A stretch of 64,000 nucleotides of DNA from Bryobacterales bacterium. GTDB taxonomy: Bacteria; Acidobacteriota; Terriglobia; Bryobacterales; Bryobacteraceae. Positions 20,205 to 41,536 of this stretch are shown here, piece by piece. Location: positions 22,214 to 86,213 of the forward strand of contig JAFAQY010000106.1 in NCBI GenBank assembly GCA_019261985.1. Reading direction: 5' to 3'. The notes beneath the pieces were generated by a model that had not been told where the DNA came from, did not search any database, and saw only the letters and a list, made by a program, of their open reading frames with translations. Numbering within the stretch: the stretch's first letter is position 1; each line of letters opens with the position of its first letter. The position numbers and the translations under genes are program-made.

Positions 20205-21299
20205 TCAAGGTAAAACGACCATGCCGCCGGTCATGTCATTATTCAAATCCCACGTCGTTTCGTGCTTAAACGTGACGGCATCGTAAACGTCGATCTCGAA
20301 TCCCGCCCCGTACATGTATAGCTTCGCGCCGTTGGCTGAAATTCCGAAACTGTACCGCGATCTGCAGGGCACTTCACCAGTGCGGGCGAGTTTACTGGTG
20401 CCAAGATCGAGCCCCCAAAATTCGCAGCGCTTGTTGCCTAGGGTTCCGTTCGTGATAACGGTGTAGCCCATTTTCTTATCCGGCGTGACGCGCAGATTCG
20501 TCATTGCGACCGGCGCTGGGCCCATGGCCGTGAAATCGAACTTTCTGGTGTTGAGGTCGAATCGCGCCAAGCCGAATACGCGATTGTGAACGATCGGATC
20601 GGAAAAATTGAATATCGCGACGTGTTCTCCCGGTTGGCTAATCGATTCCAGAAGACCTCCGAGTCCGAGATTTTCGATCGCGGGAGCGTCCGGCTGCGCG
20701 AGATCGATCTTCTCAACGATGCTGAAGTCGGAGGAATTCAGCACGGTTACCGTGGATCCGAATTGATAGAGGTATTTTCCGTCCGGAGAGACTTCGAATC
20801 CGCCACCGTTGCGGCCGCCACCCCCTCCTCCGCGCCCCCCCCGGCCGGGCTCATCTTCGGGCTGATCCACCGTCTTCACGATCTTCTGCTGCGCCATGTC
20901 GATGATCGTGTATTTAGGTTTACCGATCGCGTAACGGTCGATTTGCTTCGTGATTTCAATCGTCGAAGCGTAAAGCAGCTTTCCTTCTGGGTCCGGAGCG
21001 CCTCCATTTATCCGATACCGGTGGGTTGCATCGTCCAACACAAAATGATTCGTAATCTTGCGCGAGGCGAGGTCTAGAACTTCGAACCCACTATGGTCAT
21101 TCGTGCTTACGATAATGGATTTTCGATCGTACGAGAGCCGCAAGCCCCTGGGAAGTCCCGTTACCAGATGAATTCGGTCAACGATTTTGCCCTGAGCTTC
21201 ATCGATTACGAGAATCCGATCCGGATACGCGCCGGCGAAAATCGTGCCTCCGCTCGCGATGGCCGAAATAAGACCGAGACTAACGAAAATTAGCTTCAT
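20205..21299 (-). CDS. qhpB: QHNDH beta subunit-like 7-bladed beta-propeller (locus 1)
   Basis: The ORF runs 20205-21374. The start is placed at MKLIFVSLGLISAIASG (signal peptide), 23 nt after the qhpC stop. Propeller-like repeats are present, and the gene sits immediately downstream of qhpA-D-C. Contains a Gly/Arg-rich insert, GRGGRGGGGGGRNGGG. Confidence 0.7.
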   Translation of the reverse strand: MKLIFVSLGLISAIASGGTIFAGAYPDRILVIDEAQGKIVDRIHLVTGLPRGLRLSYDRKSIIVSTNDHSGFEVLDLASRKITNHFVLDDATHRYRINGGAPDPEGKLLYASTIEITKQIDRYAIGKPKYTIIDMAQQKIVKTVDQPEDEPGRGGRGGGGGGRNGGGFEVSPDGKYLYQFGSTVTVLNSSDFSIVEKIDLAQPDAPAIENLGLGGLLESISQPGEHVAIFNFSDPIVHNRVFGLARFDLNTRKFDFTAMGPAPVAMTNLRVTPDKKMGYTVITNGTLGNKRCEFWGLDLGTSKLARTGEVPCRSRYSFGISANGAKLYMYGAGFEIDVYDAVTFKHETTWDLNNDMTGGMVVLP

Positions 21300-21322
21300 A
21301 ATCTTCACTCGGGAAACACCTG

Positions 21323-21694
21323 CTATGGGAACACCAAATCCAGGTTCCGCCAATCCTTCGTGGCGGCGGCGCACTTACCCGCCCAATCGGGATAGTTGTT
21401 CAAGTGATCGGGAACCTGCGCCGGCCAGAAACATGTGACGTAGCAATCATAGATATCGCGCTCCACCGGTTGGCACAATCCAGCGGTTCCACCGGAGGAA
21501 TCCACCTCCCATCCCGGAGAAAACGCCAGCGCGCATCCCATAGGCACGTGCGGACGTGGCGGGGGCGCCTGATTTGGTTGGTTCTGAAGAGCCACTACAT
21601 CATCGTCTGAATGTCGCTCCGATTGCGGCCGTATTGCGGGATCCATATGCTCGATGCGGCGCGCCTTTTTGTTTACTGCTCGCAAATGTTTCAT
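21323..21694 (-). CDS. qhpC: QHNDH gamma subunit precursor (cysteine tryptophylquinone and thioether-crosslinked peptide), locus 1
   Basis: The ORF track extends to 21799, but the ATG at 21694 overlaps the qhpD TGA (ATGA). The core is GCALAFSPGWEVDSSGGTAGLCQPVERDIYDCYVTCFWPAQVPD...DWRNLDLVFP. It carries Cys7/Glu16, Cys27/Asp33, Cys37, Cys41, Trp43 and Asp49 at canonical spacing (numbering as recalled from the Paracoccus/Pseudomonas enzymes). Confidence 0.8.
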   Translation of the reverse strand: MKHLRAVNKKARRIEHMDPAIRPQSERHSDDDVVALQNQPNQAPPPRPHVPMGCALAFSPGWEVDSSGGTAGLCQPVERDIYDCYVTCFWPAQVPDHLNNYPDWAGKCAAATKDWRNLDLVFP

Positions 21695-23130
21695 AGCGCC
21701 TTCCTTTCCGCGAATTTTTCCAGAAACTCTGGATTTTCCGCGCTGATGGTACCGAAAATGCGCAAACAGGTGTCCGTCCAATCCCTGATCCAATCGCAAT
21801 AATGCAAATTAGGATGGCCGGTGTCGCCGTAACGAACGAAAGCTTCGTGATGGCAGCCGCCGGCACACAGCGGGCGCGCCCAGCATGTGTGGCACTCGTA
21901 CTTGTTATTGATATGGCCGCGCTGCAGAAAATCCGTCTGTTTAGCGCGGTCCACTCCGGTAGCGATGTTGCCCATTGCGTGAGTATCGGAATCGACGAAG
22001 CGATGGCACGGAGCGATATCTCCAGACGGCCCTACTCCCATCAGGCCCAAGCCGGCGCCGCACGGATGGGATTTGTTGACTCCTTGATAAAGCTCGGCGA
22101 TCGTGTCGCTCACGTTGGTGAACCCGTGCATTTCGCCACGCAGCGCATATTCCAGGTATTCGCCCGCGAGGATGTGGAACTGTTCCAACACTCCGTTCAT
22201 ACCTGGCTCATTGATGGCGTACAAACGATCGGGCGAAGTGGTGACGGGTGCGAATCCGACTTCATGAAAGCCAAGGTCGTCTTTCAAGTGCCTGTAAATG
22301 CGCACTACATCCGTCACGCCATTCGTCAACGTAACCCGCGCCGTAATGGGACGGGTGCGGTGGCCGTGAATCAGCGCTTTCACCCGCGGCTCAATCACGT
22401 CGTAGCTTCCACGGCCGTTCGCGAAAACTCGCAGCTTATTATGCAGGTCGGGTGGACCATCCATGCTTACGGTCACGCCGATTCGGTTTTCCGAGAGGAA
22501 TTCGATAATTGCGGGAGTGAGCAGCGTCGCATTGGTGGTCAAACTGAAATCGATGCTCCGGCTCTTGGCGGCCGCGCGCGCGTTGGCATAGGTCACAACA
22601 CGCTTGAGCAACGGAAAGTTCATCAGCGTTTCCCCGCCGAAGAACGTGATATGCACGGCCCGCCGGCCGGAGGAATTCTCGAGCAGAAAGTTCACCGAGC
22701 CCTTAGCGGTCTCAATGTCCATGAACTTCGGCTTGCCGTCCGGAGTCGCTACCTTGTCTTCTCCGAACTCATAGCAATACTGACACGACAGGTTGCACTG
22801 GTTGGTGAGGTTCATCACCAGACTTTGCATGGGAAAGTCTGGTGGAGGCGGCTCCAATGGCTCGGTTTCCGCATGGACCGGCACGATCGCCCGCACTTGC
22901 GCTAGCTCGTCTATCAATTCCGCTGCATCGTTATAGGCGAAGTCGCGTTGCATCAGTCCCGCGACGAGTTCCTCGCGAGTCGCTCGCTTCCCGGCAAGCT
23001 CGCCGACCACCGCGGCCGCATCGGAATCTATTTCGAAGATGGCCCCCGCAGGAACTACATACAGGAACTTGCGGCCGCCGCCTTCAAAACTGTGAAACTC
23101 GCCCAGCCGGTACGCTGCGCCCGCACTCAC
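21691..23130 (-). CDS. qhpD: Radical SAM/SPASM peptide-crosslinking maturase, locus 1
   Basis: CNLSCQYCYE is the CX3CX2C radical SAM motif. The C-terminal SPASM cysteines are CGAGLG...CHRF...CHTCWARPLCAGGCHHE. The likely GTG start at 23130 overlaps the qhpA stop (GTGA). The ORF track's TTG at 23154 is the alternative. Confidence 0.85.
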   Translation of the reverse strand: MSAGAAYRLGEFHSFEGGGRKFLYVVPAGAIFEIDSDAAAVVGELAGKRATREELVAGLMQRDFAYNDAAELIDELAQVRAIVPVHAETEPLEPPPPDFPMQSLVMNLTNQCNLSCQYCYEFGEDKVATPDGKPKFMDIETAKGSVNFLLENSSGRRAVHITFFGGETLMNFPLLKRVVTYANARAAAKSRSIDFSLTTNATLLTPAIIEFLSENRIGVTVSMDGPPDLHNKLRVFANGRGSYDVIEPRVKALIHGHRTRPITARVTLTNGVTDVVRIYRHLKDDLGFHEVGFAPVTTSPDRLYAINEPGMNGVLEQFHILAGEYLEYALRGEMHGFTNVSDTIAELYQGVNKSHPCGAGLGLMGVGPSGDIAPCHRFVDSDTHAMGNIATGVDRAKQTDFLQRGHINNKYECHTCWARPLCAGGCHHEAFVRYGDTGHPNLHYCDWIRDWTDTCLRIFGTISAENPEFLEKFAERKAL

Positions 23131-24917
23131 TTGGTCACCTCCGGTTGGTCCCAACGTATGTAAGTAGGAATCGTCACCACAAGATAAGACTTGCCCACCA
23201 GCGGCTTCCCATCTTTATCTTTCTCGTTCTTTGCAGTTGCCACTACCCAGACGTTGCCGTAATTGTTTCGGCTGAATTTGCGCTGGGGGTTGGGACCGTC
23301 GAGGTTGGGAGTGAATAGACCGTGGCCGTCGAGCGTTCCTACGAATTCCTTGTCGTCGTCGCCGAAAACGGAATAGAACTCCTCGATAGACCAACTGACA
23401 TCTATGGGTCCTAATTCAATGTCGTCGCCGGTGCGCAGCTTACCGTCTTCGCCGCGGTGGTACGCCATTACTTCGAGTTGCTGATAGCCCTTGGGATGTG
23501 GAGATTTTGAATCGCCACCCAACCGCGCTAGCGAAGCTTCAGGTAACACCTTGATGTAATCCACCTTGTCGTAAACGGCAAGAGCACCCTCCAGCACCGA
23601 ATTCCGGAATGACACATCGCGCTTTCCCGGAACAGCGGTGGAAGCGACATCTAACTGCGCAACAATTTCGGTGGACGTGTGGGAAGCGATCGACTTTACC
23701 GTGATGCCCGAACCAAAATCCAAATCCCCAACGGCAACCTGCGCGGGCAGATTGCTCCCGATTAACCGTAGTTGCTGGCCCTGCGATCCCGTTTTGACCG
23801 AATAACGATCGATCGTGAGCAACGTGGGTTCCGGGGTAGCGCGTTTGAGCGTCACGTCCACGCCGAATTCCTGATACTCGCCCCAGAACCACCGGCCTTG
23901 CGCCCAGGTCTGATCCGGCGAGATCCACAGTGCCTCGCGCATTTCGGCCGATAGATCGTTCGGGACCGGGTTGGCTGGAGCGGATGTGCCTTTAGAACGG
24001 CCGCGCCAAGAGTAGCCTGCATATACCAATCCCGTGCCGATTCTTGAAATGGCGGCTCCGCCGCCGACCGGCTGCAACTTAAGAGAAGTCGTAAATTCGT
24101 CGTCGGCAGCTCCGGGCGAGATGATCAACTCGCCGTGGTATTTTCCATGTCCGGGGATATGCGCGGAAATCAACCACCGGCCTGCGATTTTGGGCGATCG
24201 CATGCGCGCGCGCCACGCGGCCCACTCCGGAGTGCGCAAGCCGTAATTCTTGCCAAGAAAGTCGAGCGTGATGTCGAGAGAAATGTTTGCCGCGTTCGCC
24301 GCGGCAGCGGCATCGCCACCGCCGCCGCCCTCGCCGCCTCCGTTAGGTCCCGCGCCGTTTCTTCGAAACGCCGCGTCTGCCTGCTGATAGAGCGCCGAAT
24401 GCAGATCGGCGAGCAAGGACCACTCCGCGCGCGTCCGGCGCCACTGGAATGGACGTCCCAGAGCATGACAGTTCATGCAGGTAGCACGAATGGAGTCGTT
24501 TGGGATGGTTTCATCCTGAATGCGATGCTCGGCCATATACATCACGGGCTTAGCTTCTTCCGGCGCCAAACCGTGAGACGCGCTCAGGTATTTCACGATC
24601 GCCTTGGCGTCGGCCGGCTCGAGCGTGAGCCCGTTCAGGCGCACCATGCGTTTGATGGCCTCTTCCCACCCCTCCGGAGTGGTGCGAATCCACGAAATTC
24701 GCGTTAAATTGTCCTTCTCGTCCTTCCGGTGACAGCTCGAGCACTTGCTGACGGTGAGGGTGTCTGTGACAGGGATTCCCTCTTCCTGAGCTTCGGCCGC
24801 GCCGCCGCGGCCGGTGGCGTTGCCCCCTCCGCGTCCATTGCCTCGGCCTTGGCAAAAGGCCGGAGAGGACAGCGTGATTATCCCTAACACGAGACCAATG
24901 GCGATCGAATTCTTCAT
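23127..24917 (-). CDS. qhpA: QHNDH alpha subunit-like di-heme cytochrome c protein, locus 1
   Basis: 596-aa ORF with a signal peptide. Two CxxCH motifs (CSSCH, CMNCH) lie in an N-terminal domain containing RISWIRTTPEGWEEAIKRM, followed by long beta-rich domains. Two Gly-rich low-complexity inserts are present. Confidence 0.8.
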   Translation of the reverse strand: MKNSIAIGLVLGIITLSSPAFCQGRGNGRGGGNATGRGGAAEAQEEGIPVTDTLTVSKCSSCHRKDEKDNLTRISWIRTTPEGWEEAIKRMVRLNGLTLEPADAKAIVKYLSASHGLAPEEAKPVMYMAEHRIQDETIPNDSIRATCMNCHALGRPFQWRRTRAEWSLLADLHSALYQQADAAFRRNGAGPNGGGEGGGGGDAAAAANAANISLDITLDFLGKNYGLRTPEWAAWRARMRSPKIAGRWLISAHIPGHGKYHGELIISPGAADDEFTTSLKLQPVGGGAAISRIGTGLVYAGYSWRGRSKGTSAPANPVPNDLSAEMREALWISPDQTWAQGRWFWGEYQEFGVDVTLKRATPEPTLLTIDRYSVKTGSQGQQLRLIGSNLPAQVAVGDLDFGSGITVKSIASHTSTEIVAQLDVASTAVPGKRDVSFRNSVLEGALAVYDKVDYIKVLPEASLARLGGDSKSPHPKGYQQLEVMAYHRGEDGKLRTGDDIELGPIDVSWSIEEFYSVFGDDDKEFVGTLDGHGLFTPNLDGPNPQRKFSRNNYGNVWVVATAKNEKDKDGKPLVGKSYLVVTIPTYIRWDQPEVTK

Positions 24918-30048: not shown

Positions 30049-31473
30049 GTGATCCGTTGGATCGTAGCAGCGGGAGTTGCGCTGTGTATCGCAGCCGTAG
30101 GTCAGCCTGGCGGTTTGCCATTCACGATCGAGGCGGTTGAGAACGTGAGTGCCCATTTCCCCGGTGCGCCGAAGCTGCAATCGTTTGCCTGGGCACAGTG
30201 GGATGGCAAGTGGATTTTTATCGGGGGCAGAACCACGGGATACCACGGCGTCGGGGCCGCGGACGCGGATTTTCCCCGCGCCGGCAGCAACGACAGGATC
30301 TGGGTGATCGATCCTTCCTTAGCGAAGACTTACAGCTTCCCGCTGGCGAGTCTGCCCAGCGCCTTGACAGCTGTTAAAGACCAATGGCTATCCAGCAATC
30401 TTCTGTTTTTTCAGGACAAAAGCACGTTATATCTGGCGGGCGGCTACGGAGCGAACTCGAATGGAAAGTTAGTCACGTATCCGGTTCTATCGCGGGTCGA
30501 TCTGCAAGCTCTGGTGAAGGGTGTTGTCGCCGGAACGGATACGTTCTCCGACACGATCCGATGGACCACAAGTACTCTGGTGCAGTCGGCCGGAGGCGAG
30601 TTGCTGAAGCTCGATGACGGTTCGTTTTATCTTGCCGGAGGACACGTGTTCACAGGAAGTTATCGGGATTTCGAAGCGGGGAATGAACAGGAGACGAAAA
30701 CTGCGTCGCAGAAGTACCTGGGGGAGATCCGGAGGCTGAAGTTAACCGATGCGGGTGGGCGCCCGTACGTTGACTTGATCGAGCGCTACGCCGATCCGGA
30801 ATTCGCCCGACGCGATTTAAACGCAGGCCTGATTATCCTTCCCGACGGACACTCTCTCGGCGCGGCAATTTATGGCGGCGTGTTCACGCGAGAGCAGCTC
30901 AATTTTTCGAAGCCCATTTATTGGGACGCCTTTACAAGCCCTCACGTAGATGAGTATGAGCAGAAGATGAGTGCCTATTCCTGTGCCACCGTCCAGATGT
31001 TCGATCCGGATTCGAAAACCATGTACACGACGTTTTTCGGGGGTATCAGCCGGTGGACCTGGGACGAGAAGAAAAGTGTGTTTGTCCAAGCACCATTGGT
31101 GGGCGATAAGACCAAAACCGTTTACCTCGACGGCATGCCGTGGATCGACCAGATTTCTACACTTGCTCGCCATGGCGGCCATAGCGAGGAGTTCGTTCAG
31201 TCTTCTCGTCTGGGCGGATTCGTTGGAGCGAACGCGGCGTTTCTGCCGGTGGCTGGATTGAAAAGAATACGGGCGGATGCGCCGGTTTACGATCTCTCCG
31301 CGCTGCGCGGAAAGCGAACTCTGATTGGTTATATTTACGGCGGCATCCGTGCGTTTCCGCGTGAATTTCCTTATCTCGAAAGCTCGCCTTCCTACAGCGC
31401 AGGGAACGTGCCTACCAAACCGAACGATCTGATTCTGGCCGTGTACATCACGGTCCCGGCATCGCGGCGCTAA
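30049..31473 (+). CDS. Secreted Kelch-like beta-propeller protein (hypothetical)
   Basis: 474-aa ORF with a GTG start and a signal-like N-terminus. Recurring Kelch-like motifs: WIFIGGRTTGYHG, LYLAGGYGAN, FYLAGGHVF, AAIYGGVF, TTFFGGIS, GYIYGGI. Confidence 0.45.
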   Translation: MIRWIVAAGVALCIAAVGQPGGLPFTIEAVENVSAHFPGAPKLQSFAWAQWDGKWIFIGGRTTGYHGVGAADADFPRAGSNDRIWVIDPSLAKTYSFPLASLPSALTAVKDQWLSSNLLFFQDKSTLYLAGGYGANSNGKLVTYPVLSRVDLQALVKGVVAGTDTFSDTIRWTTSTLVQSAGGELLKLDDGSFYLAGGHVFTGSYRDFEAGNEQETKTASQKYLGEIRRLKLTDAGGRPYVDLIERYADPEFARRDLNAGLIILPDGHSLGAAIYGGVFTREQLNFSKPIYWDAFTSPHVDEYEQKMSAYSCATVQMFDPDSKTMYTTFFGGISRWTWDEKKSVFVQAPLVGDKTKTVYLDGMPWIDQISTLARHGGHSEEFVQSSRLGGFVGANAAFLPVAGLKRIRADAPVYDLSALRGKRTLIGYIYGGIRAFPREFPYLESSPSYSAGNVPTKPNDLILAVYITVPASRR

Positions 31474-32189
31474 ACCCCGGCTTCGGAGGCGAGCGCCGCG
31501 CCCAAGAGGTCCGCGTTAACAGACTCGCGGGCACGCAGCACGAACCCCGTCATATTCGCCACCGCGAAGCTGATCCCGTGCAGATTACGCTCGCGCGGCA
31601 TCCCCGGAAGCGAGCGCGGGTAGCCCGAAGCGTAATAACAGCCGTTTTTCAGGTAATAGCGGTCACGCGGGCAATCCCAATCGAGACCCACGCCAATGAC
31701 TCCGGGAAGACTTCCAGGAAGGCACAATTGCCCATTGGCTTCATAGGCCGCAACAATTATCGTTCCCCGCGCGGCAGCGTTTTCTATTAAAGCTCGGAAC
31801 CGGCTCTGGTATTCGAGCTTCAAGGTTCCGAGGCTCAGATTGACGACATCTACGCCTTTTGCCAAGCTCCACTCGATTGCCGCAATAAGAGCCGGCGTTG
31901 AGGTGCGCAGCGAGTTGTGAAACAGTTTTACGGCAAAATAGTCCGCGTCAGGAGCCTTCTCCTGGATTGCGGCCATTACGGCGGTGCCGTGGCCCAGCAT
32001 GTCCACAAACGAATCTTCCTCTAGCTCGCCGGGTCCGAACACCGAAACGCCGCCCGACACGCCCCGGATATGTGGATGGCGAGCGTTCACGCCGCTGTCG
32101 ATGACCGCGGCACGCAGACCACGGCCCGATGCTCCTGGAAAGGGCAGAGCCTGGCTGGCCTCAGGACTGGAGTATGGGGTCGAGGACAT
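31470..32189 (-). CDS. qhpE: Small subtilisin-like serine protease (gamma-leader peptidase type)
   Basis: 239-aa ORF. S8-type catalytic triad contexts AVIDSGVNARHPH (Asp), LGHGTAVMAAI (His) and HGISFAVANMTG (Ser). There is no signal peptide, and the gene overlaps the 3' end of the ABC exporter gene by 29 nt. Confidence 0.7.
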   Translation of the reverse strand: MSSTPYSSPEASQALPFPGASGRGLRAAVIDSGVNARHPHIRGVSGGVSVFGPGELEEDSFVDMLGHGTAVMAAIQEKAPDADYFAVKLFHNSLRTSTPALIAAIEWSLAKGVDVVNLSLGTLKLEYQSRFRALIENAAARGTIIVAAYEANGQLCLPGSLPGVIGVGLDWDCPRDRYYLKNGCYYASGYPRSLPGMPRERNLHGISFAVANMTGFVLRARESVNADLLGAALASEAGV

Positions 32190-33879
32190 GCGTAATCTTC
32201 ATTTGGGTGATTTGGGCGCGCGCAGATTCGATCTCGATCACGCAATCGGCGCTGGCTGCCAATGCCGGGCGGTGGGTGATGACGATCAGTGTCGAACCGG
32301 GCAATGCATCGCGCAGATTTGAAGCCACCAGTCTTTCGGTTTCGGAATCAAGGGCCGATGTGGGCTCGTCAAGAATGAGCACGCGCGGACGGCGCAGCAA
32401 GGCGCGCGCTAGGGCGATCCGTTGCCTTTCGCCGGCGGATAGGGCTAGACCCCGCTCCCCGGTCTTGGTTCCATAGCCTTCGGGAAGCCGTTCGATCAAC
32501 TCGCCCAGACCGGCGGCGCGAGCGGCTTGGTCGATCCGATCATCGCCGGCATCGGGAAGAGCATAGGAGATGTTCTCGCGGATGCTCGTATTGAACAAAT
32601 ACGGCGACTGGTCCACTAGCATCACTTGGCCGCGCAAATCGTCGAGCGAGACCGCTCGTAGATCGTGGCCATCCAGCAGGATTCGCCCACGATCCGGATC
32701 CAGATAGCGGACCAGAAGGTCGGCAAGAGTAGATTTGCCGGCGCCGCTTGGTCCTAAGATGGCGCAGAACGCTCCGGCCGGAATCTCGAGAGAAACATCT
32801 TCAAGAACGGGCTTGCGGTCATATTTGATGGAAACGTTTTCTAGACGAAAATGACCTTGAACCAACGCAAGCCGAGTTGGCGGCTCAGCTTCACGAACCT
32901 CGGCGGGCGTATCGAAAAGCTCGAAAACCCGGCCTAGCGAAACCCGGGCCGAGGCCAGTCCGGACGTCATGCTCATCAGGTTCTGGATGGGGGACAACAG
33001 GCGCATATGGTAGGCCATAAAGGCCACCATCGTGCCGACGGACATGGCGCCATTGATAATCAGCCACCCTCCATAAAGAAACACGGCGGCGGTAGCAGCC
33101 GTTAGAATCGCGCCCGGCAGCGCACCAGTCATAAACGATGCGATTTGCGCGTCGAGCATGGTTCGTACAAAGGCGTCGTTGCGTTCCTTAAAACGCGCCG
33201 TCTCGTGCTTATTGGCGCGGAGCGAAACAACAACCCGCATGCCCAGAATCGTCTCCACAAACAAACTGCCCAGATCCGCGCTGCGTTCCCGCAGGGCCTT
33301 CGTGAAGGCAGTGAGCTTACGCTGATACCGGCGGAAGGTGTAAAGGCAAGCAGGAATAAAAACGACACTTACAAAGAATAGGCGCCAGTTCAGCAACAGC
33401 ATCATGAAAATGCTGCCGAACAGAAAGACAACGTTCGAAAGGACGGAAAGCAGCGTATCGGCCGATACGCGCTGTATCTCGCCGACATCGTTGTTCAGGC
33501 GGGACATCAGATCGCCAAGCCTGAAGCCGGCGTAAAACCGGGGCGATAGCGTCTGCAAATGACGGAACAGAGCCAGCCGCATATCGAAGAGCATCGCGGC
33601 CGAGACCTTTACATAGCGGTAGCTCGAAAGAATATTGAGGAGAAAACTCAACACGCTCGCGCCGAACATTAAACCCGCCACGCGAACCAGAGCGTGCATG
33701 TCGCGCTTCAAAAGCGCGCTGTCGATAAGGAGCTTGGAGATGTACGGCTGAACCAATCCCAGGCACGTGGCAGCGAGACTGATCGCGAGGATCAGGACCA
33801 GCCGCCCCGTGTAGGGATGAAGAAAAACCCAAAGTCTGCGCCAATGGCGCCATTGGGCTACGCCTGCGCCGGCTTCCAT
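32161..33879 (-). CDS. qhpF: ABC exporter with fused permease and ATPase (gamma-subunit exporter type)
   Basis: 572-aa ORF. Six-helix TMD, then Walker A GPSGAGKST, signature LSAGERQR and Walker B LILDEPTS. Lies directly downstream of qhpB of locus 2. Confidence 0.75.
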   Translation of the reverse strand: MEAGAGVAQWRHWRRLWVFLHPYTGRLVLILAISLAATCLGLVQPYISKLLIDSALLKRDMHALVRVAGLMFGASVLSFLLNILSSYRYVKVSAAMLFDMRLALFRHLQTLSPRFYAGFRLGDLMSRLNNDVGEIQRVSADTLLSVLSNVVFLFGSIFMMLLLNWRLFFVSVVFIPACLYTFRRYQRKLTAFTKALRERSADLGSLFVETILGMRVVVSLRANKHETARFKERNDAFVRTMLDAQIASFMTGALPGAILTAATAAVFLYGGWLIINGAMSVGTMVAFMAYHMRLLSPIQNLMSMTSGLASARVSLGRVFELFDTPAEVREAEPPTRLALVQGHFRLENVSIKYDRKPVLEDVSLEIPAGAFCAILGPSGAGKSTLADLLVRYLDPDRGRILLDGHDLRAVSLDDLRGQVMLVDQSPYLFNTSIRENISYALPDAGDDRIDQAARAAGLGELIERLPEGYGTKTGERGLALSAGERQRIALARALLRRPRVLILDEPTSALDSETERLVASNLRDALPGSTLIVITHRPALAASADCVIEIESARAQITQMKITHVLDPILQS

Positions 33880-33991
33880 TTAGCTTGTCCCGAGAACTGT
33901 ATCCAAACTCGGGCGGACGCCCAGGCCCGCGCCGGAATCCACATAGGCCCGCGGTCCATGGGGACCACCCCACAGGGTATGAGATCGAACA

Positions 33992-35110
33992 TCAGCTACC
34001 TGATAACGTTATCAGATTTGTGGTGGTGTCTTTGTTGAGGTACAGCAGCTTGGTGGATTTCAACGTTTTCGTATCGTAGAACTCGATCGTCGAACCGCCG
34101 CCATACACCAGCAGCTTCGATCCGTCGCTGCTGATCGAAAAACGGAAGTTTACGCGAGCGGGAAGAAACTCTCTCTTGATCACCTTATGCGCGGCAACGT
34201 CCCATACCCACCACTCCGTAACGCGATTCGCGCCCGTGTTGTACACCATTAGCGAATAGCCGAGCTTACGGTCGGGTGAAAGAGCAAAACCCACCATCGG
34301 GAAAGCCGGCCCCAGCGGTGTGTATTCCACCTTCTTGGTTGCCAAATCGATTGTGGCCATGCCGATCGTCTGTTTGTGAACGGCTGCATCCACCGAGGTG
34401 AACACGTTCGTCACAGTCCCGGCAGCGTCGTTTGGATCGTCGTTCGCGGCCAGCCGGTAGGGAGATGCGCCCGGGTACTCCGGCTTCGCCAGTTCGATAC
34501 GGTCGACTTCATGAAGATCGCTCAAATCGAAGACGACGACGTCGTCATCGAATACATACAGTAGCTTGCCGTCGGGCGAAATCTTGTAAGTCGCGCCGAA
34601 ACCAAAGCCATCGTCGTACCCTTTGGGGAAGGGCATTGACTGAACGATCTTTTTATCCTGCAGGTCGATTTTCACGAATATCGGAGGATCGTTCCGATAT
34701 TGGTCGATCTCTTTAACGGTTACCTTCATCGTGGTGTACACGTACCGTCCTGCTGGATCGACCGCGAGGCCGGAAAAGTTGCGGCCGCCCGCCCGCAACA
34801 TGCGCGGAATGCTCTTTCCATCCGAGAGCGGAAAACTGCTGACAATCTGGCGCGAAGCGAGATCGACCGTCTCGAAATCGAGTTGCGTGGTGACCAGGTG
34901 AAGCTTGGTTTTATCCGCGGATAAGACTGTGGTGCGGGGAATGCCGCCAAGCGGGATTTCACCAACGATATCGCCCGTGCTCTCGTTAATGATGAGAAGT
35001 TTCTTATCGAGCGTTCCGACATACATCAAGCCCTTTAAGCTCGCTGGCGTTTGCCCCAAGCACAAGGCCGAGGCCAAAACGACGGTTCCAAACAATCGCG
35101 TGACTCCCAT
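33992..35110 (-). CDS. qhpB: QHNDH beta subunit-like beta-propeller (locus 2)
   Basis: 372-aa ORF with a signal peptide. Alignable along its length with 20205-21299 (for example LHLVTTQLDFETVDLASRQIV against the locus 1 equivalent). Starts 15 nt after the qhpC stop. Confidence 0.7.
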   Translation of the reverse strand: MGVTRLFGTVVLASALCLGQTPASLKGLMYVGTLDKKLLIINESTGDIVGEIPLGGIPRTTVLSADKTKLHLVTTQLDFETVDLASRQIVSSFPLSDGKSIPRMLRAGGRNFSGLAVDPAGRYVYTTMKVTVKEIDQYRNDPPIFVKIDLQDKKIVQSMPFPKGYDDGFGFGATYKISPDGKLLYVFDDDVVVFDLSDLHEVDRIELAKPEYPGASPYRLAANDDPNDAAGTVTNVFTSVDAAVHKQTIGMATIDLATKKVEYTPLGPAFPMVGFALSPDRKLGYSLMVYNTGANRVTEWWVWDVAAHKVIKREFLPARVNFRFSISSDGSKLLVYGGGSTIEFYDTKTLKSTKLLYLNKDTTTNLITLSGS

Positions 35111-35125
35111 CTGTGTTGCCTCTCG

Positions 35126-35473
35126 TTACGGATAAACGACATCCACGTTGCGCCAATCGTTGACGGCTGCGCTGCACTTGTCCGTCCACGAAGGATTGTT
35201 GCTGACATGATCCGGAACTTGCGCGGGCCAGGCACAGCCTAGATAGCAGTCAAAGAGATCCCGCTCCACGGGCTGGCACAGGCCTGCCGTTCCGCCCGAA
35301 ACATCCACTTCCCAGCCGGGGTTAAACGAGAGCGTGCATCCCAGCGGGTAGTAAACGCGCCCGGATTTGGAAGCGTCGGACTCTTGTTGCAGCGCCTGCA
35401 CATCGCCCAATTCGGCGAAGCGTACCCGCTCCATGTTGCGAGCCTTCTGATTAAACGGTTGCAGCGATTTCAT
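35126..35473 (-). CDS. qhpC: QHNDH gamma subunit precursor, locus 2
   Basis: The ORF track extends to 35581. The start is placed at the ATG at 35473, with an AAGGA sequence 6 nt upstream and 11 nt after the qhpD stop. The core GCTLSFNPGWEVDVSGGTAGLCQPVERDLFDCYLGCAWPAQVPD...DWRNVDVVYP has all canonical crosslink residues. Confidence 0.8.
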   Translation of the reverse strand: MKSLQPFNQKARNMERVRFAELGDVQALQQESDASKSGRVYYPLGCTLSFNPGWEVDVSGGTAGLCQPVERDLFDCYLGCAWPAQVPDHVSNNPSWTDKCSAAVNDWRNVDVVYP

Positions 35474-35484
35474 GAGTGGTCCTT

Positions 35485-36927
35485 TCAGTCGTTGAAGCGC
35501 TCCAAAAACTTTGGATTGCCCATGCCGATCTCCGCATAAATGTGGAGACAAAGATCGATCCATCCGCGCACGCGATCGCACTGCTTCAATAGCGACGCGG
35601 AGGTATTGCCGTGATTAATGAACGATTCGTGATAGCAGCCTCCCGCGCATACGGGACGCACCCAGCAGGTGTGACAGTCCGGCCGCGCCCCGATATGATG
35701 CTGTTCCAGAAACTCCCGCCGGGCTTCGTGATCGATGCCGCCTTTCACCACGTTGCCCATCTGCGCGACGGGCGCGTCAACAAACCGGTGGCACGCACCG
35801 ATGTCTCCCGATGTGCCAACGCCAAGCATTCCGAGTCCGGCTCCACAGGTATAGGCCTTGCTGACTCCCGAATGAAGCTCCTTAAGAGTGTCGGTGACGT
35901 TAGTGAAGCGGTGGTGGCGACCCTTGAGAGCGTGGTCCCGATATTCGTACGCCAGATCCGCGAATTCGCCGAGGATATCGTCCATGGTTTCGCCGCCGAT
36001 GTGATAGAGGCGGTCGGGACTGGCAGTCGCCGGCGAAAATCCTACACCCGCGAAATCGAACTCCTGGGTCAGATGATCGTAGATTCGCCGCACATGGCGA
36101 ACACCGCTGCTAAGAGTCACTCTGGCGCCGATGGAATTTGTTTTGTGCCGCGCCAGCAGCATTTTTATCTTGGGAGCGATGACATCGTAGCTGCCGCGGC
36201 CATTGTGAAAAACGCGCATGCGATCGTGCAATTCTTTATCGCCGTCGATGCTGACGGTTACCCCGAAACGATGCTCAGCAAGAAAATCCGCGATCTCTTC
36301 CGTCAGAAGCGTCGCGTTGGTAGTTAGACTGTAATCGACCGCTTTGCCCTCCGACGCCGCCTTCGCATCCGTATAAGCCACTGTGGACTGCATCAGCGGG
36401 AAATTCAAGAGAGATTCACCGCCGAAAAAAGTCACGTGCAGCTTGGGGCGTCCGGCCGACTCGCGAAACAAAGTGTCTATCGCGGCCTGCGCGACCGGAT
36501 CGGTCATGTACTTCGGCTTGTCTTTTGTAATGGCGATTTTGTCCGGGCTGTACTCGTAGCAGTATCCGCAGCTCAGGTTGCACTGATTGGTGAGGTTCAG
36601 GACCACGCGCTGCAGAGGAAAATCGCCAGCCGGTATTGACGGAAATTTTGGACGTCCATCGCCGGAAGTCAGAACGTCGTAATACGTCATCTCTTCAAGG
36701 ATGGCTTCGATTTCGTCTGGAGCGTAACGCCGTTCAGTAAACCAAGAGACCAGCTCCCCACGATCGAGCGGACCAAGGGGAAACGCGTCGAAAATCTCTT
36801 TCGAAAGCCCGTCTAAACGGAACACAGCCCCGCTGGGGACCAGATAGAGAAAGTCAGCATCCGCAACTCTGAACCGGTGATGTTCAGACTGCCGGTAAGC
36901 CGTCGCGGCAGGTTCGCAAGCAGTCAT
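35485..36927 (-). CDS. qhpD: Radical SAM/SPASM peptide-crosslinking maturase, locus 2
   Basis: 480-aa ORF. CNLSCGYCYE motif and SPASM cysteines CGAGLG...CHRF...CHTCWVRPVCAGGCYHE. Its ATG overlaps the qhpA TGA (ATGA). Confidence 0.85.
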   Translation of the reverse strand: MTACEPAATAYRQSEHHRFRVADADFLYLVPSGAVFRLDGLSKEIFDAFPLGPLDRGELVSWFTERRYAPDEIEAILEEMTYYDVLTSGDGRPKFPSIPAGDFPLQRVVLNLTNQCNLSCGYCYEYSPDKIAITKDKPKYMTDPVAQAAIDTLFRESAGRPKLHVTFFGGESLLNFPLMQSTVAYTDAKAASEGKAVDYSLTTNATLLTEEIADFLAEHRFGVTVSIDGDKELHDRMRVFHNGRGSYDVIAPKIKMLLARHKTNSIGARVTLSSGVRHVRRIYDHLTQEFDFAGVGFSPATASPDRLYHIGGETMDDILGEFADLAYEYRDHALKGRHHRFTNVTDTLKELHSGVSKAYTCGAGLGMLGVGTSGDIGACHRFVDAPVAQMGNVVKGGIDHEARREFLEQHHIGARPDCHTCWVRPVCAGGCYHESFINHGNTSASLLKQCDRVRGWIDLCLHIYAEIGMGNPKFLERFND

Positions 36928-38747
36928 TGCTGAGCGACCTCGGGCTGGTCGTAAAGCGTGTAATTCGGGACAGTCACTACCAGGTACGATTTGGCCTTGT
37001 GGGTGACTCCTGCGGCATCTTTATAGGTGGCAACAGCCCAGACGTCGCCGTAGTTGTCTACGCCGAAGTTACTGTTGACCTTTTTGCGTTCGGGGTTGGG
37101 ACCTTCAAAGCTGGGCGTGAACAAGCCCGAATCGTCGATCTTCCCCACGAACAGGATGTCATCGTCGTCAGGGGTTGAAAAGAACTCCTCCATCGACCAT
37201 TGGGCGCTTACGGGTCCTAAATCCAGATCGTCGGCAGTGTGAGGCTTGCCATCGGGACCGGCGGCGTATGCTCGCGCTTCATATTGCGCAAACTCTTTGG
37301 GCCACTTAATGCCACCGAGCCGCGAAATCTGCGCGTTCGGGCTCACCTCAATGTAGGCGATCTTGTCGTACACGGCCAGGGCTTTAATCTTGCCGGCGCG
37401 GCCGATGGTCAGATCCCGCATGCCTACCGGAGCTTTTGCGGCAATGTCAACTTCGATGGTCGCCAATGTAGGGGTTGCGTTGACGACTTTCGTGACCGTA
37501 ATGCCGGGGCCGAATATGAAATCGGACGGTTGCAGCGATGACGGAAGATTGCCGCCAAATATCTTTACCTGACCGTGCGAAGGAGACTGAAGGGCCGATA
37601 TATCCGTACCCAGGATCGCCGGTTCTGCGCTAGCACGCACCAGATGCACATCCATGCCAAGCTCGCCGAAACCGCTCCAGAACCAGCGGCCGTCCATGCT
37701 GTTGCCATCGCGGGAAACCATCATGGCCTCGCGCCATTCAGCTGGAATACCACTGGCCGCGGTGACCGGCGCCGACGCCGCCGTAACCGGAAGGGGACTC
37801 ATGGCCGCAGCCCCGGAACGGCCGCGCCAGCTATAGCCGGTGTACACGATGCTCTTGCCGGTGAGCTTCAGGCTAGCTCCGGAACTCGCGTAAGTCAGCT
37901 GTGTTGTCGTCGAAAAAAGATCGTCGGATGCTCCGGGCGTAATCACAACCTGGCCGTAGATGCGTCCGCGACCCGGCTGATAGGCGGACACAAGCCACGT
38001 TCCCGCGAGTTTAGGCGCTCGCATAGCGGCGCGCCAAGCCGTCCATTCAGGAGTAATCAGCGGTTGGCTGGTTGCAAGATAATCGACAGCGATAGCGCCA
38101 GGCGCTTTTGCATTTACGGCGGAAGCTGCCGTGGCTCGAGGCGCTTCACGATTAATACCACCGGTATCGTTCGCTGTCAGGTGTACCGGCGCTTCCTCGA
38201 TCGGTACAGCCTTGGTGCGCTGCGGGCGGAACACGTTCTCCGCGCTCGGGAACATGCCGATGTGCATCGCCAGTAACTTTTGATAATCCTCGCGCGTTCG
38301 GCGCTGAGCTAAAACGCGGCCGATGTTGTGACAGTTGTTGCACGTTTTCTGAAGGGCCGGATTCGAAACATGATCGTCCTGATAGCCTTGGGTCCGGTGC
38401 TCCACCTCCCAGAACCCTGCCGCCATTTCTTCCGGCGCCAAGCCGTTGTTGTTGCTAAGGTAGCGGACGATGTCCCGCACTTCTTGCGGTGTGGCCGAAA
38501 GCCCGTTCAGCCGGATCATGCGTTTAATCGCCTGTTCCCAGACCTCGGGAGTCGTACGGATGTAAGAGATTCGGGTCATCAACCCGGCGGGGTCGCGCCG
38601 GTGGCAACCACCGCATTTGCTGATCGTCAACTGATCGTTTATAGGAATTCCCGCCACGTCAGGCTGCGAGCCGCTCTGCGCGTGAACGATGCTAAGTGCC
38701 ATGAAAAGCAGGCCTGCAACACCGACAAATCGTGCATGACTGGACAT
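36924..38747 (-). CDS. qhpA: QHNDH alpha subunit-like di-heme cytochrome c protein, locus 2
   Basis: 607-aa ORF with a signal peptide. CGGCH and CNNCH motifs, RISYIRTTPEVWEQAIKRM. The C-terminal SYLVVTVPNYTLYDQPEV matches the locus 1 C-terminus. Confidence 0.8.
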   Translation of the reverse strand: MSSHARFVGVAGLLFMALSIVHAQSGSQPDVAGIPINDQLTISKCGGCHRRDPAGLMTRISYIRTTPEVWEQAIKRMIRLNGLSATPQEVRDIVRYLSNNNGLAPEEMAAGFWEVEHRTQGYQDDHVSNPALQKTCNNCHNIGRVLAQRRTREDYQKLLAMHIGMFPSAENVFRPQRTKAVPIEEAPVHLTANDTGGINREAPRATAASAVNAKAPGAIAVDYLATSQPLITPEWTAWRAAMRAPKLAGTWLVSAYQPGRGRIYGQVVITPGASDDLFSTTTQLTYASSGASLKLTGKSIVYTGYSWRGRSGAAAMSPLPVTAASAPVTAASGIPAEWREAMMVSRDGNSMDGRWFWSGFGELGMDVHLVRASAEPAILGTDISALQSPSHGQVKIFGGNLPSSLQPSDFIFGPGITVTKVVNATPTLATIEVDIAAKAPVGMRDLTIGRAGKIKALAVYDKIAYIEVSPNAQISRLGGIKWPKEFAQYEARAYAAGPDGKPHTADDLDLGPVSAQWSMEEFFSTPDDDDILFVGKIDDSGLFTPSFEGPNPERKKVNSNFGVDNYGDVWAVATYKDAAGVTHKAKSYLVVTVPNYTLYDQPEVAQQ

Positions 38748-40534: not shown

Positions 40535-41536
40535 TTATGCGACGGCCTCAAGCTGAAAACCGTTCAGTCGATAGCGAAACGGGGGAAATCGCGCCAGTCT
40601 TTCGGCGCACCAAGCCAAGCCACGTTCAAGGGCGTGCAATTCCGCGGTCCACCACGGCCCATCGCCACCGCTCCGATAAAAACCAATACAGTTCGCGAGG
40701 TGCCGGTGAAAGCCGGCGGTCAAGCGCGATTCGTAATGCGCAAACACATGATCCGCTGACTCCCCGTTGGATATGGCACGGACGGCAGCAGCGGCTAGAA
40801 CGGCTTCGCGCACGGCATGCGCGGTACCGTCTCCACAGATTGGATCGAAAGCGAGCGCGGCCGTGCCGCAGGCCAGCCATCGCCTGTCCTCAGCGCAGCC
40901 GCAAAGCGGGATCATTATTCTCGGGTGGGCAGGGAATTCGCCATTGGGCGCATGAACGTATCGGATTTGCTTTGCGATCAGCCGGCTGCCTTCGAGCGGA
41001 GCGCCGCAGACACCGCCAACGCAAAGTAGCGACCCTGTGCTATCTTCGCTTCCGATCAAGAATAGCCAACCGTCCTCAGCCGATTCGACCCAGCAGCCAG
41101 GTTCGCCGGCGGTGTTCAATTCAACCGAATAAGCGCGGGCCGTTCGCGTGCCGAAACGTTGCTCCGCCGCTCCGGGCGGAGATGGACGTGAAGAAAAGAT
41201 CTCCCACTCCGATGGGCGCGGCACGGCGGCGATTGGGATGGCCGGCCGGATATGGTCCAACAGTATTTTCTCAGAGACAACCACAGCGGAATGCGGTAAA
41301 ACGACGGGTTCGGCTTGCGAACCCCAGAGGACAGTCCTGTGTTGAATGCGCGGCAGCTCTCGAAAGAGGTCCCGATGTCCGAAAACATCCGCCATCAATT
41401 TAATCGCGGCCTCGCTGAGCATCACGGCCGGCACGCGGGGACGGCTGGAAGCTTCGAGCTCCACGGGAACCCCGGCTCGATGTAAAATATGCGCGCAGCA
41501 ATATGCGGCTACTCCGTCGCCGCGAACCAGGACCAT
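40535..41536 (-). CDS. FAD-dependent monooxygenase-like flavoprotein, candidate QhpG/LodB-type tryptophylquinone biogenesis enzyme
   Basis: 333-aa ORF. The N-terminal Rossmann beta-alpha-beta is MVLVRGDGVAAYCCAHILHRAGVPVELE (a GxGxxA variant). The second FAD motif is ACGTAALAFDPICGDGTAHAVREA (GD...DP type). The assignment to cofactor biogenesis rests on context. Confidence 0.45.
   Translation of the reverse strand: MVLVRGDGVAAYCCAHILHRAGVPVELEASSRPRVPAVMLSEAAIKLMADVFGHRDLFRELPRIQHRTVLWGSQAEPVVLPHSAVVVSEKILLDHIRPAIPIAAVPRPSEWEIFSSRPSPPGAAEQRFGTRTARAYSVELNTAGEPGCWVESAEDGWLFLIGSEDSTGSLLCVGGVCGAPLEGSRLIAKQIRYVHAPNGEFPAHPRIMIPLCGCAEDRRWLACGTAALAFDPICGDGTAHAVREAVLAAAAVRAISNGESADHVFAHYESRLTAGFHRHLANCIGFYRSGGDGPWWTAELHALERGLAWCAERLARFPPFRYRLNGFQLEAVA

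Follow-up and report, generated by a model that had tools for sequence, protein, structure and literature searches.

We asked why the gamma subunit (QhpC) of an acidobacterial QHNDH has one cysteine more than the characterised enzymes, and what this residue might be doing there. QHNDH is a model system for the enzymatic formation of sulfur-to-methylene thioethers in a protein and for CTQ biogenesis. To our knowledge, all the biochemistry so far comes from two proteobacterial four-cysteine enzymes, and we know of no biochemical study of the five-cysteine clade considered here. The question is raised by the gene qhpC2, located in the window (by which we mean the whole stretch of 64,000 nucleotides of Bryobacterales DNA that was analysed). 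An additional Cys-X5-Asp motif is encoded near its 3' end, and the features concerned are as follows, residue numbers being those of the solved P. putida and P. denitrificans gamma subunits:

35126–35473, minus strand: qhpC2, precursor of the QHNDH gamma subunit (PF08992, NF037958 and PDB matches)
35156–35176, minus strand: extra Cys-X5-Asp motif, Cys61-Ser-Ala-Ala-Val-Asn-Asp67 (from the translation)
35174–35176, minus strand: Cys61 codon TGC, the fifth cysteine (Ala in both solved structures)
35156–35158, minus strand: Asp67 codon GAT, candidate thioether acceptor (kept in nearly the whole family)
35153–35155, minus strand: Trp68 codon (invariant family-wide with or without Cys61)

The product of qhpC2 is 115 residues long, with a leader of about residues 1–39 followed by a mature domain of 76 residues. 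It matches PF08992 (E=5.5e-32, 110 bits against a cutoff of 25) and NF037958 (115.7 bits against a cutoff of 50), as well as the PDB gamma chains 1jmx_G (E=5e-21) and 1jju_C (E=7e-20). The codons TGC AGC GCA GCC GTC AAC GAT at 35156–35176 on the minus strand are translated as CSAAVND; the bare C-X5-DW pattern has two further chance occurrences in the six-frame translation of the 64-kb window. The mature protein thus contains five cysteines, Cys61 being additional to the four canonical ones, which are encoded upstream together with their partners:

35309–35338, minus strand: canonical cross-link pair Cys7...Glu16 (alignment to 1jju_C/1jmx_G; PMC8172795)
35258–35278, minus strand: canonical cross-link pair Cys27-X5-Asp33 (alignment; PMC8172795)
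35210–35248, minus strand: Cys37...Trp43 (the CTQ precursor) and the pair Cys41...Asp49 (alignment; PMC7876137, PMC8172795)

At the sequence level, every one of these canonical residues is found at its aligned position in QhpC2 and in QhpC1, the product of a paralogous gene in the same window. The four canonical cysteines of QhpC all end in thioethers (PMC7876137, PMC8172795). Three of the links are introduced by the maturase QhpD into the leader-bearing precursor (PMC7876137), and CTQ itself is a Cys-X5-Trp link (PMC8172795). The known cysteine-acid pairs are spaced X8, X5 and X7, and the extra motif has the X5 spacing of Cys27-Asp33. In family alignments, the leader holds a conserved N-x-K-A motif.

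The gamma subunits of P. denitrificans (1JJU/1PBY, chain C) and P. putida (1JMX/1JMZ, chain G) belong to the same family as the window QhpC, and a leader peptide and a qhpA-D-C-B operon are common to all of them. The window QhpC and the 1JJU and 1JMX chains share all thioether and CTQ residues, together with D67-W68-R69. However, the solved gamma subunits have Ala61 and four cysteines, whereas the clade of the window has Cys61 and also differs at F11, R32, D36 and D72. The window contains two qhp loci with this gene order:

36924–38747, minus strand: qhpA2, dihaem alpha subunit (TIGR03908, 448 bits against a cutoff of 274; four Pfam alpha-subunit domains)
35485–36927, minus strand: qhpD2, radical SAM/SPASM maturase (TIGR03906, 520 bits against a cutoff of 453)
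33992–35110, minus strand: qhpB2, divergent beta subunit (TIGR03907, 44.6 bits, below the cutoff of 223; operon position)
32161–33879, minus strand: ABC exporter, QhpF-like by position (PF00664 and PF00005; role inferred from PMC7876137)
31470–32189, minus strand: qhpE, subtilisin-like leader peptidase (NF049966, 162.2 bits against a cutoff of 165; PF00082)
40535–41536, minus strand: possible divergent, short QhpG-like flavin monooxygenase (NF049967, 63 bits against a cutoff of 240)
21323–21694, minus strand: qhpC1, paralogous gamma subunit (PF08992, E=1.9e-36, 124 bits)
21353–21373, minus strand: equivalent motif of locus 1, Cys61-AAATK-Asp67 (CAAATKD, from the translation)
21691–23154, minus strand: qhpD1, second QhpD maturase (TIGR03906, 628 bits against a cutoff of 453)
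23127–24917, minus strand: qhpA1, alpha subunit (TIGR03908, 510 bits)
20205–21302, minus strand: qhpB1, divergent beta subunit (TIGR03907, 51 bits, below cutoff; operon position)

The two structural loci (20205–24917 and 31470–38747) are 13 kb apart. As annotated, locus 2 is a complete qhpA-D-C-B-F-E operon, entirely on the minus strand, with QhpB and QhpG matches below cutoff. A true QhpD adjoins each qhpC gene, the TIGR03906 scores of 520 and 628 bits both exceeding the cutoff of 453. The QhpE peptidase and the ABC exporter adjoin locus 2 only, and locus 1 presumably borrows them. The open reading frame at 40535–41536 encodes 333 residues and gave no Pfam match. It is much shorter than the P. 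putida QhpG of about 430 residues, and it perhaps lacks the C-terminal winged-helix domain; if it is the CTQ-forming monooxygenase, it would be a highly divergent one.

The preliminary description of this DNA had drawn its argument from the two paralogs. Translation and alignment agree with its reading of KCSAAVNDW, with Cys61 and Asp67, in the gamma subunit of locus 2 and of an equivalent motif in locus 1, and Cys61 is indeed extra relative to the characterised enzymes, as both PDB gamma chains have Ala61. It had counted four differences among the five intervening residues, where there are three (SAAVN against AAATK). It had also stated that only the two putative partners and the following Trp were kept between the paralogs, but W57, K60, A63, A64, R69, N70 and D72 are identical too. 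Such a two-paralog comparison is weak because the mature domains are 67% identical and several flanking residues are shared. Moreover, Asp67-Trp68 is near-universal in the family, so that its retention between paralogs is expected and is no evidence for pairing. The contention that Cys61 and Asp67 form a functional pair rather than contain a chance cysteine therefore has to be divided: the cysteine is not there by chance, as the homologs described below indicate, whereas the argument for its pairing falls because Asp67-Trp68 is kept nearly everywhere without Cys61. The earlier reasoning was thus flawed, and the pairing hypothesis survives better tests, which on the available alignments support it in part.

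Cys61, Asp67 and Trp68 occur together in 120/120 of the nearest protein clusters, down to 57% identity, and in 80/80 of the closest species-representative genome loci, a set made of the closest loci only, from which the reference genomes of the Ala61 clade are left out. These loci come mostly from Acidobacteriota (Bryobacteraceae, Terriglobia, Blastocatellia), with some Gemmatimonadota and two Rhodospirillaceae MAGs. Among 82 distinct coding sequences the Cys61 codon is TGC in 71 and TGT in 11, and the Asp67 codon is GAC in 60 and GAT in 22. This synonymous turnover with the residue kept reflects strong purifying selection at Cys61, as opposed to recent common descent. A single exception was met within the Cys61 lineages, P0125, which has Tyr. 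Divergent Cys61 lineages retrieved by exhaustive and profile searches have Asp at +6, the 50%-identity representative search being rich in fragments and frameshifted proteins and used qualitatively, and lineages with a one-residue insertion have Glu at +6 and Asp at +7. Obvious frameshifted fragments aside, every Cys61 in the surveyed homologs was accompanied by an acidic residue at +6. In the conservation analysis that the preliminary description had called for, Cys-bearing homologs keep both Cys61 and this acidic residue, and free replacement was not seen. The insertion lineage (P0162, P0218, P0371, P0373, P0382, P0399 and P0400), exemplified by CSGVNAEDW, keeps an acidic residue at the X5 spacing.

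One could imagine that Cys61 has no specific function and was simply inherited as a neutral mark of its lineage. Its distribution needs just one state change on the tree, and the paralogs are 67% identical in any case. Nevertheless, we find this hardly credible, because synonymous codons have turned over, with almost no change of the residue, in over 200 distinct sequences spread across several phyla, and the neighbouring positions 62, 63, 65 and 66 vary freely in the 82 coding sequences and in the family alignment. The situation is different in the studied proteobacterial clade: position 61 is Cys in 0/120 of the clusters nearest to the P. putida gamma subunit, where it is Ala in 107, Thr in 5, Ser in 3, and Pro, Val, Lys, Glu or Asp once each. 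When all lineages without the cysteine are considered, position 61 accepts A, S, T, V, K, N, L, G, R, E and D. With such a broad tolerance in the absence of Cys, simple packing fails to explain the absolute conservation of the cysteine, and a crowded site with room for Cys or Ala alone is improbable. According to these comparisons, Cys61 is a real, non-chance residue, functionally constrained across a large, deep and environmentally dominant clade.

One conceivable use of a fifth cysteine is an intermolecular disulfide with another subunit, a second gamma chain or a partner protein. The odd number of cysteines in mature QhpC is in line with this idea, as is the Cys at position 17 of QhpB2, close to where its signal peptide is predicted to be cleaved. 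Yet residue 17 is the sole cysteine of QhpB2 and lies in the signal peptide, QhpB1 has no N-terminal Cys, and the cysteines of QhpA2 all belong to its two haem-binding CXXCH motifs. In addition, cysteine is entirely missing from the beta ORFs of the closest relatives, and 31 of 72 related beta ORFs lack it past residue 30. We therefore regard an intermolecular disulfide as very improbable. An inter-subunit disulfide in particular was rejected, since the four other gamma cysteines are committed, neither QhpA2 nor QhpB2 offers a free cysteine, and none is conserved in the 72 beta ORFs.

We then considered whether Asp67 behaves as a partner of Cys61. Asp67 is invariant in a diverse sample of 33 sequences that includes Cys61-less ones. 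In a set of 122 sequences, again with Cys61-less members, Asp67 is conserved in at least 90% and Trp68 in 100%. Among the sequences without Cys61, Asp67 is about 90% conserved, and 1jju_C and 1jmx_G themselves have Ala61 followed by Asp67-Trp68. The retention of Asp67-Trp68 in Ala61 enzymes counts against pairing, since it implies that Asp67 has another role. The conservation of Asp67 is nonetheless tighter when the cysteine is present. Of the 120 clusters nearest to the P. putida gamma subunit, only 103 have Asp at position 67, against Asn in 5, Gly in 5, Ser in 4 and Gln in 1. A widespread QhpC of the classic clade, that of Pseudomonas chlororaphis (P0263, 382 member sequences), has Ser in place of Asp67, which shows that a gamma subunit lacking Cys61 can do without this Asp.

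A neighbour-joining tree of 122 non-redundant mature domains was built from 72 residues, with positions 61 and 67 masked and without an outgroup. The Cys-less state forms one nested clade on this tree, that of the classic proteobacterial enzymes, and one state change suffices to account for it. The lineages with Cys61 fall on at least five deep branches, and this short, unrooted tree is compatible with a change in either direction. Parsimony counts about eight independent replacements of Asp67, by Ser, Asn, Gly or Gln, all of them inside the Cys-less clade. As the summed branch lengths are 4.95 for the Cys-less and 3.75 for the Cys-bearing part, eight losses out of eight would land in the Cys-less part with a probability of 0.569^8, or about 0.011; we prefer this conditional value to a Poisson P of 0.002, which ignores the uncertainty of the rate. 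As a control, 5 of the 72 sites (F11, R32, C61, D67 and D72) are invariant in the Cys subtrees but have changed five times or more among the Cys-less sequences, and eight sites have the opposite pattern. Clade-specific constraint is therefore common in QhpC, and the covariation of Cys61 and Asp67 is moderate evidence rather than proof. Ser, Asn, Gly and Gln are typical helix N-cap residues, and Asp67 probably has a helix N-cap role throughout the family, judging from its replacements. In the Cys61 lineages, the alignments indicate that something further forbids even such conservative changes of Asp67. F11, R32 and D72 (Asp72 at 35141–35143) share the pattern of C61 and D67, being fixed with Cys61 and variable in the classic clade, and may form a co-adapted cluster with Cys61.

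We propose, tentatively and a little short of even confidence, that the likeliest role of Cys61 is as the sulfur donor of a fourth QhpD-made thioether, directed to the beta-methylene carbon of Asp67. The ring so closed would span seven residues, like that of Cys27-Asp33, and would staple the C-terminal segment of the gamma subunit. In such a scenario the bond would form with Asp67 as the acceptor, and QhpD would act on the precursor while this is still in the cytoplasm and carries its leader, ahead of cleavage by QhpE and export. Support for the pairing comes from four features of the sequences: Asp67 is never lost in the presence of Cys61, Cys61 has no candidate disulfide partner, the X5 spacing is shared with a known pair, and a QhpD gene is adjacent. 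The candidate ring and the Cys27-X5-Asp33 ring have the same residue types and spacing, lie in the same polypeptide and have the same maturase available. They differ in that the known ring contains a Pro (CQPVERD), whereas the putative one is rich in Ala and Ser (CSAAVND) and predicted to be helical.

Alternatively, Cys61 might be linked to another acceptor, such as Asp72 (C-X10-D), Asp18 or Glu31, or to W57 or W68 in a second Cys-Trp link. Asp72 is present in 82/82 of the acidobacterial loci and is clade-specific, the classic clade having Gly, and CTQ offers a precedent for a Cys-X5-Trp link (PMC8172795). However, position 72 is T, N, Q, K, E or Cys in deep Cys61 lineages, all of which keep D67; W57 and W68 are just as invariant where Cys61 is missing; and a second QhpG-type enzyme is not evident. 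We thus consider another acceptor improbable, and Asp72 was rejected as a general acceptor on account of the deep Cys61 lineages that lack it. Because Asp72 varies in these lineages, Asp67 is the only acidic residue universally available near Cys61.

The chemistry of QhpD and its relatives bears on whether the proposed Cys61-Asp67 bond could be made. Freyrasin, produced by the PapA/PapB system, is a ranthipeptide with multiple Cys-Asp thioethers to the beta carbon, as proposed here for QhpC. Ranthipeptides are small secreted peptides with repeated CX3D motifs, whereas QhpC is an enzyme subunit. The window QhpD is a relative of PapB and not a member of its family: PapB is the next best NCBIfam match of qhpD2, at 266 bits, under the PapB cutoff of 340. 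PapB cross-links C-X0-6-D motifs largely whatever the intervening sequence (PMC9413430). Such tolerance suggests that an added Cys-X5-Asp motif could be processed. On the other hand, Cys37 is left unlinked by QhpD despite acidic residues nearby (PMC7876137), which indicates that a Cys-acid motif alone is no guarantee of a bond.

The main competitor of the Cys61-Asp67 thioether is a free thiol with a structural or redox function, buried on a helix face formed by W57, C61, A64 and W68 or at a subunit interface, Asp67 capping the W68-R69 turn. We consider this unlikely, though it has to be taken seriously. In its favour, two AF2 models, one of the full precursor with a 33-sequence alignment (pLDDT 50) and one of the mature domain with 122 sequences (pLDDT 58), both show residues 55 or 57 to 66 as a helix that breaks at Asp67, and residues 68–70 as a short turn; both are of low confidence, and AF2 is unable to represent the cross-links that define the QhpC fold. 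The conserved positions 57, 61, 64, 68 and 71 match helical periodicity, Asp67 and Trp68 are kept in the absence of Cys61, the replacements of Asp67 in the classic clade are of the N-cap type, and the clade-specific F11, R32 and D72 suggest a co-adapted packing cluster. Nevertheless, an absolutely conserved Cys across phyla is unusual for packing, when A, S, T, V, K, N, E and D are tolerated at this position elsewhere. An unpaired thiol would also be chemically risky in a periplasmic quinoprotein, and the tighter constraint on Asp67 would be left unexplained.

The same helix poses a difficulty for the thioether. A thioether needs a C-beta to C-beta distance of about 2.8 A. By backbone building, the distance between the C-beta atoms of residues 61 and 67 is 11.0 A in a continuous ideal helix; it is no less than 9.5 A with residue 65 still helical, 3.7 A with a helix end at 64 and less than 3.3 A with the end at 63, so that contact calls for a helix ending by residue 63–64. 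As modelled, the Cys61-Asp67 bond is therefore impossible, and the last helix turn would have to unwind for it to form. Segment 62–65 is Ala-rich, and the known QhpC rings contain Pro or Gly. A Foldseek search of the better AF2 model against the PDB gave 0 matches, not even 1JJU or 1JMX. The portion of the published work that is available describes QhpC as mostly coil with two short alpha-helices (PMC7876137). Taken together, the predicted geometry counts mildly against the Cys61-Asp67 bond.

If the bond exists, the substrate scope of QhpD would be broader than described. The cage architecture of the gamma subunit would differ in most natural enzymes, those of the abundant soil Acidobacteriota included, and the studied proteobacterial enzymes would represent a reduced form. 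Still more tentatively, we speculate that Cys61-Asp67 is the fourth Cys-Asp thioether, bringing the number of thioethers to five per 76-residue domain, in most environmental QhpC lineages (Acidobacteriota, Gemmatimonadota and deep branches). It would possibly be ancestral, the proteobacterial form being derived and reduced, with Asp67 slowly decaying. If Cys61 is a free thiol instead, an invariant unpaired cysteine in a periplasmic quinoprotein still needs explaining. The open literature on QhpC, QhpD and QHNDH, including papers of 2021 and 2025, reports three Cys-Asp/Glu links and CTQ only. We found no mention of a fifth QhpC cysteine in the open literature on QhpC, QhpD and QHNDH in Acidobacteria, and the Cys61 feature appears to be undescribed, as far as that literature goes.

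Two further observations concern neighbouring parts of the system. First, both beta subunits of the window score 45–51 bits against the QH_beta cutoff of 223 despite their canonical place in the operon, and by this measure the beta subunit of Acidobacteriota has diverged greatly from those characterised. In about half of the related beta ORFs that lie downstream of gamma genes (31 of 72; loci L017–L080), a pair of cysteines about 20 residues apart is found near positions 290 and 310, comparable to C317 and C337 of QhpB1. The other half have no cysteine, like QhpB2, which defines two beta subtypes. Second, a metagenomic QhpC lineage (P0207, P0217, P0223, P0244, P0388, P0404, P0413, P0443, P0451 and P0453) has seven cysteines, among them a CC doublet at 6–7, Cys61 and, at position 72, a further one, as in DCGNINSDWRNLCTVPD. 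This number implies that the lineage has still more cross-links or a disulfide.
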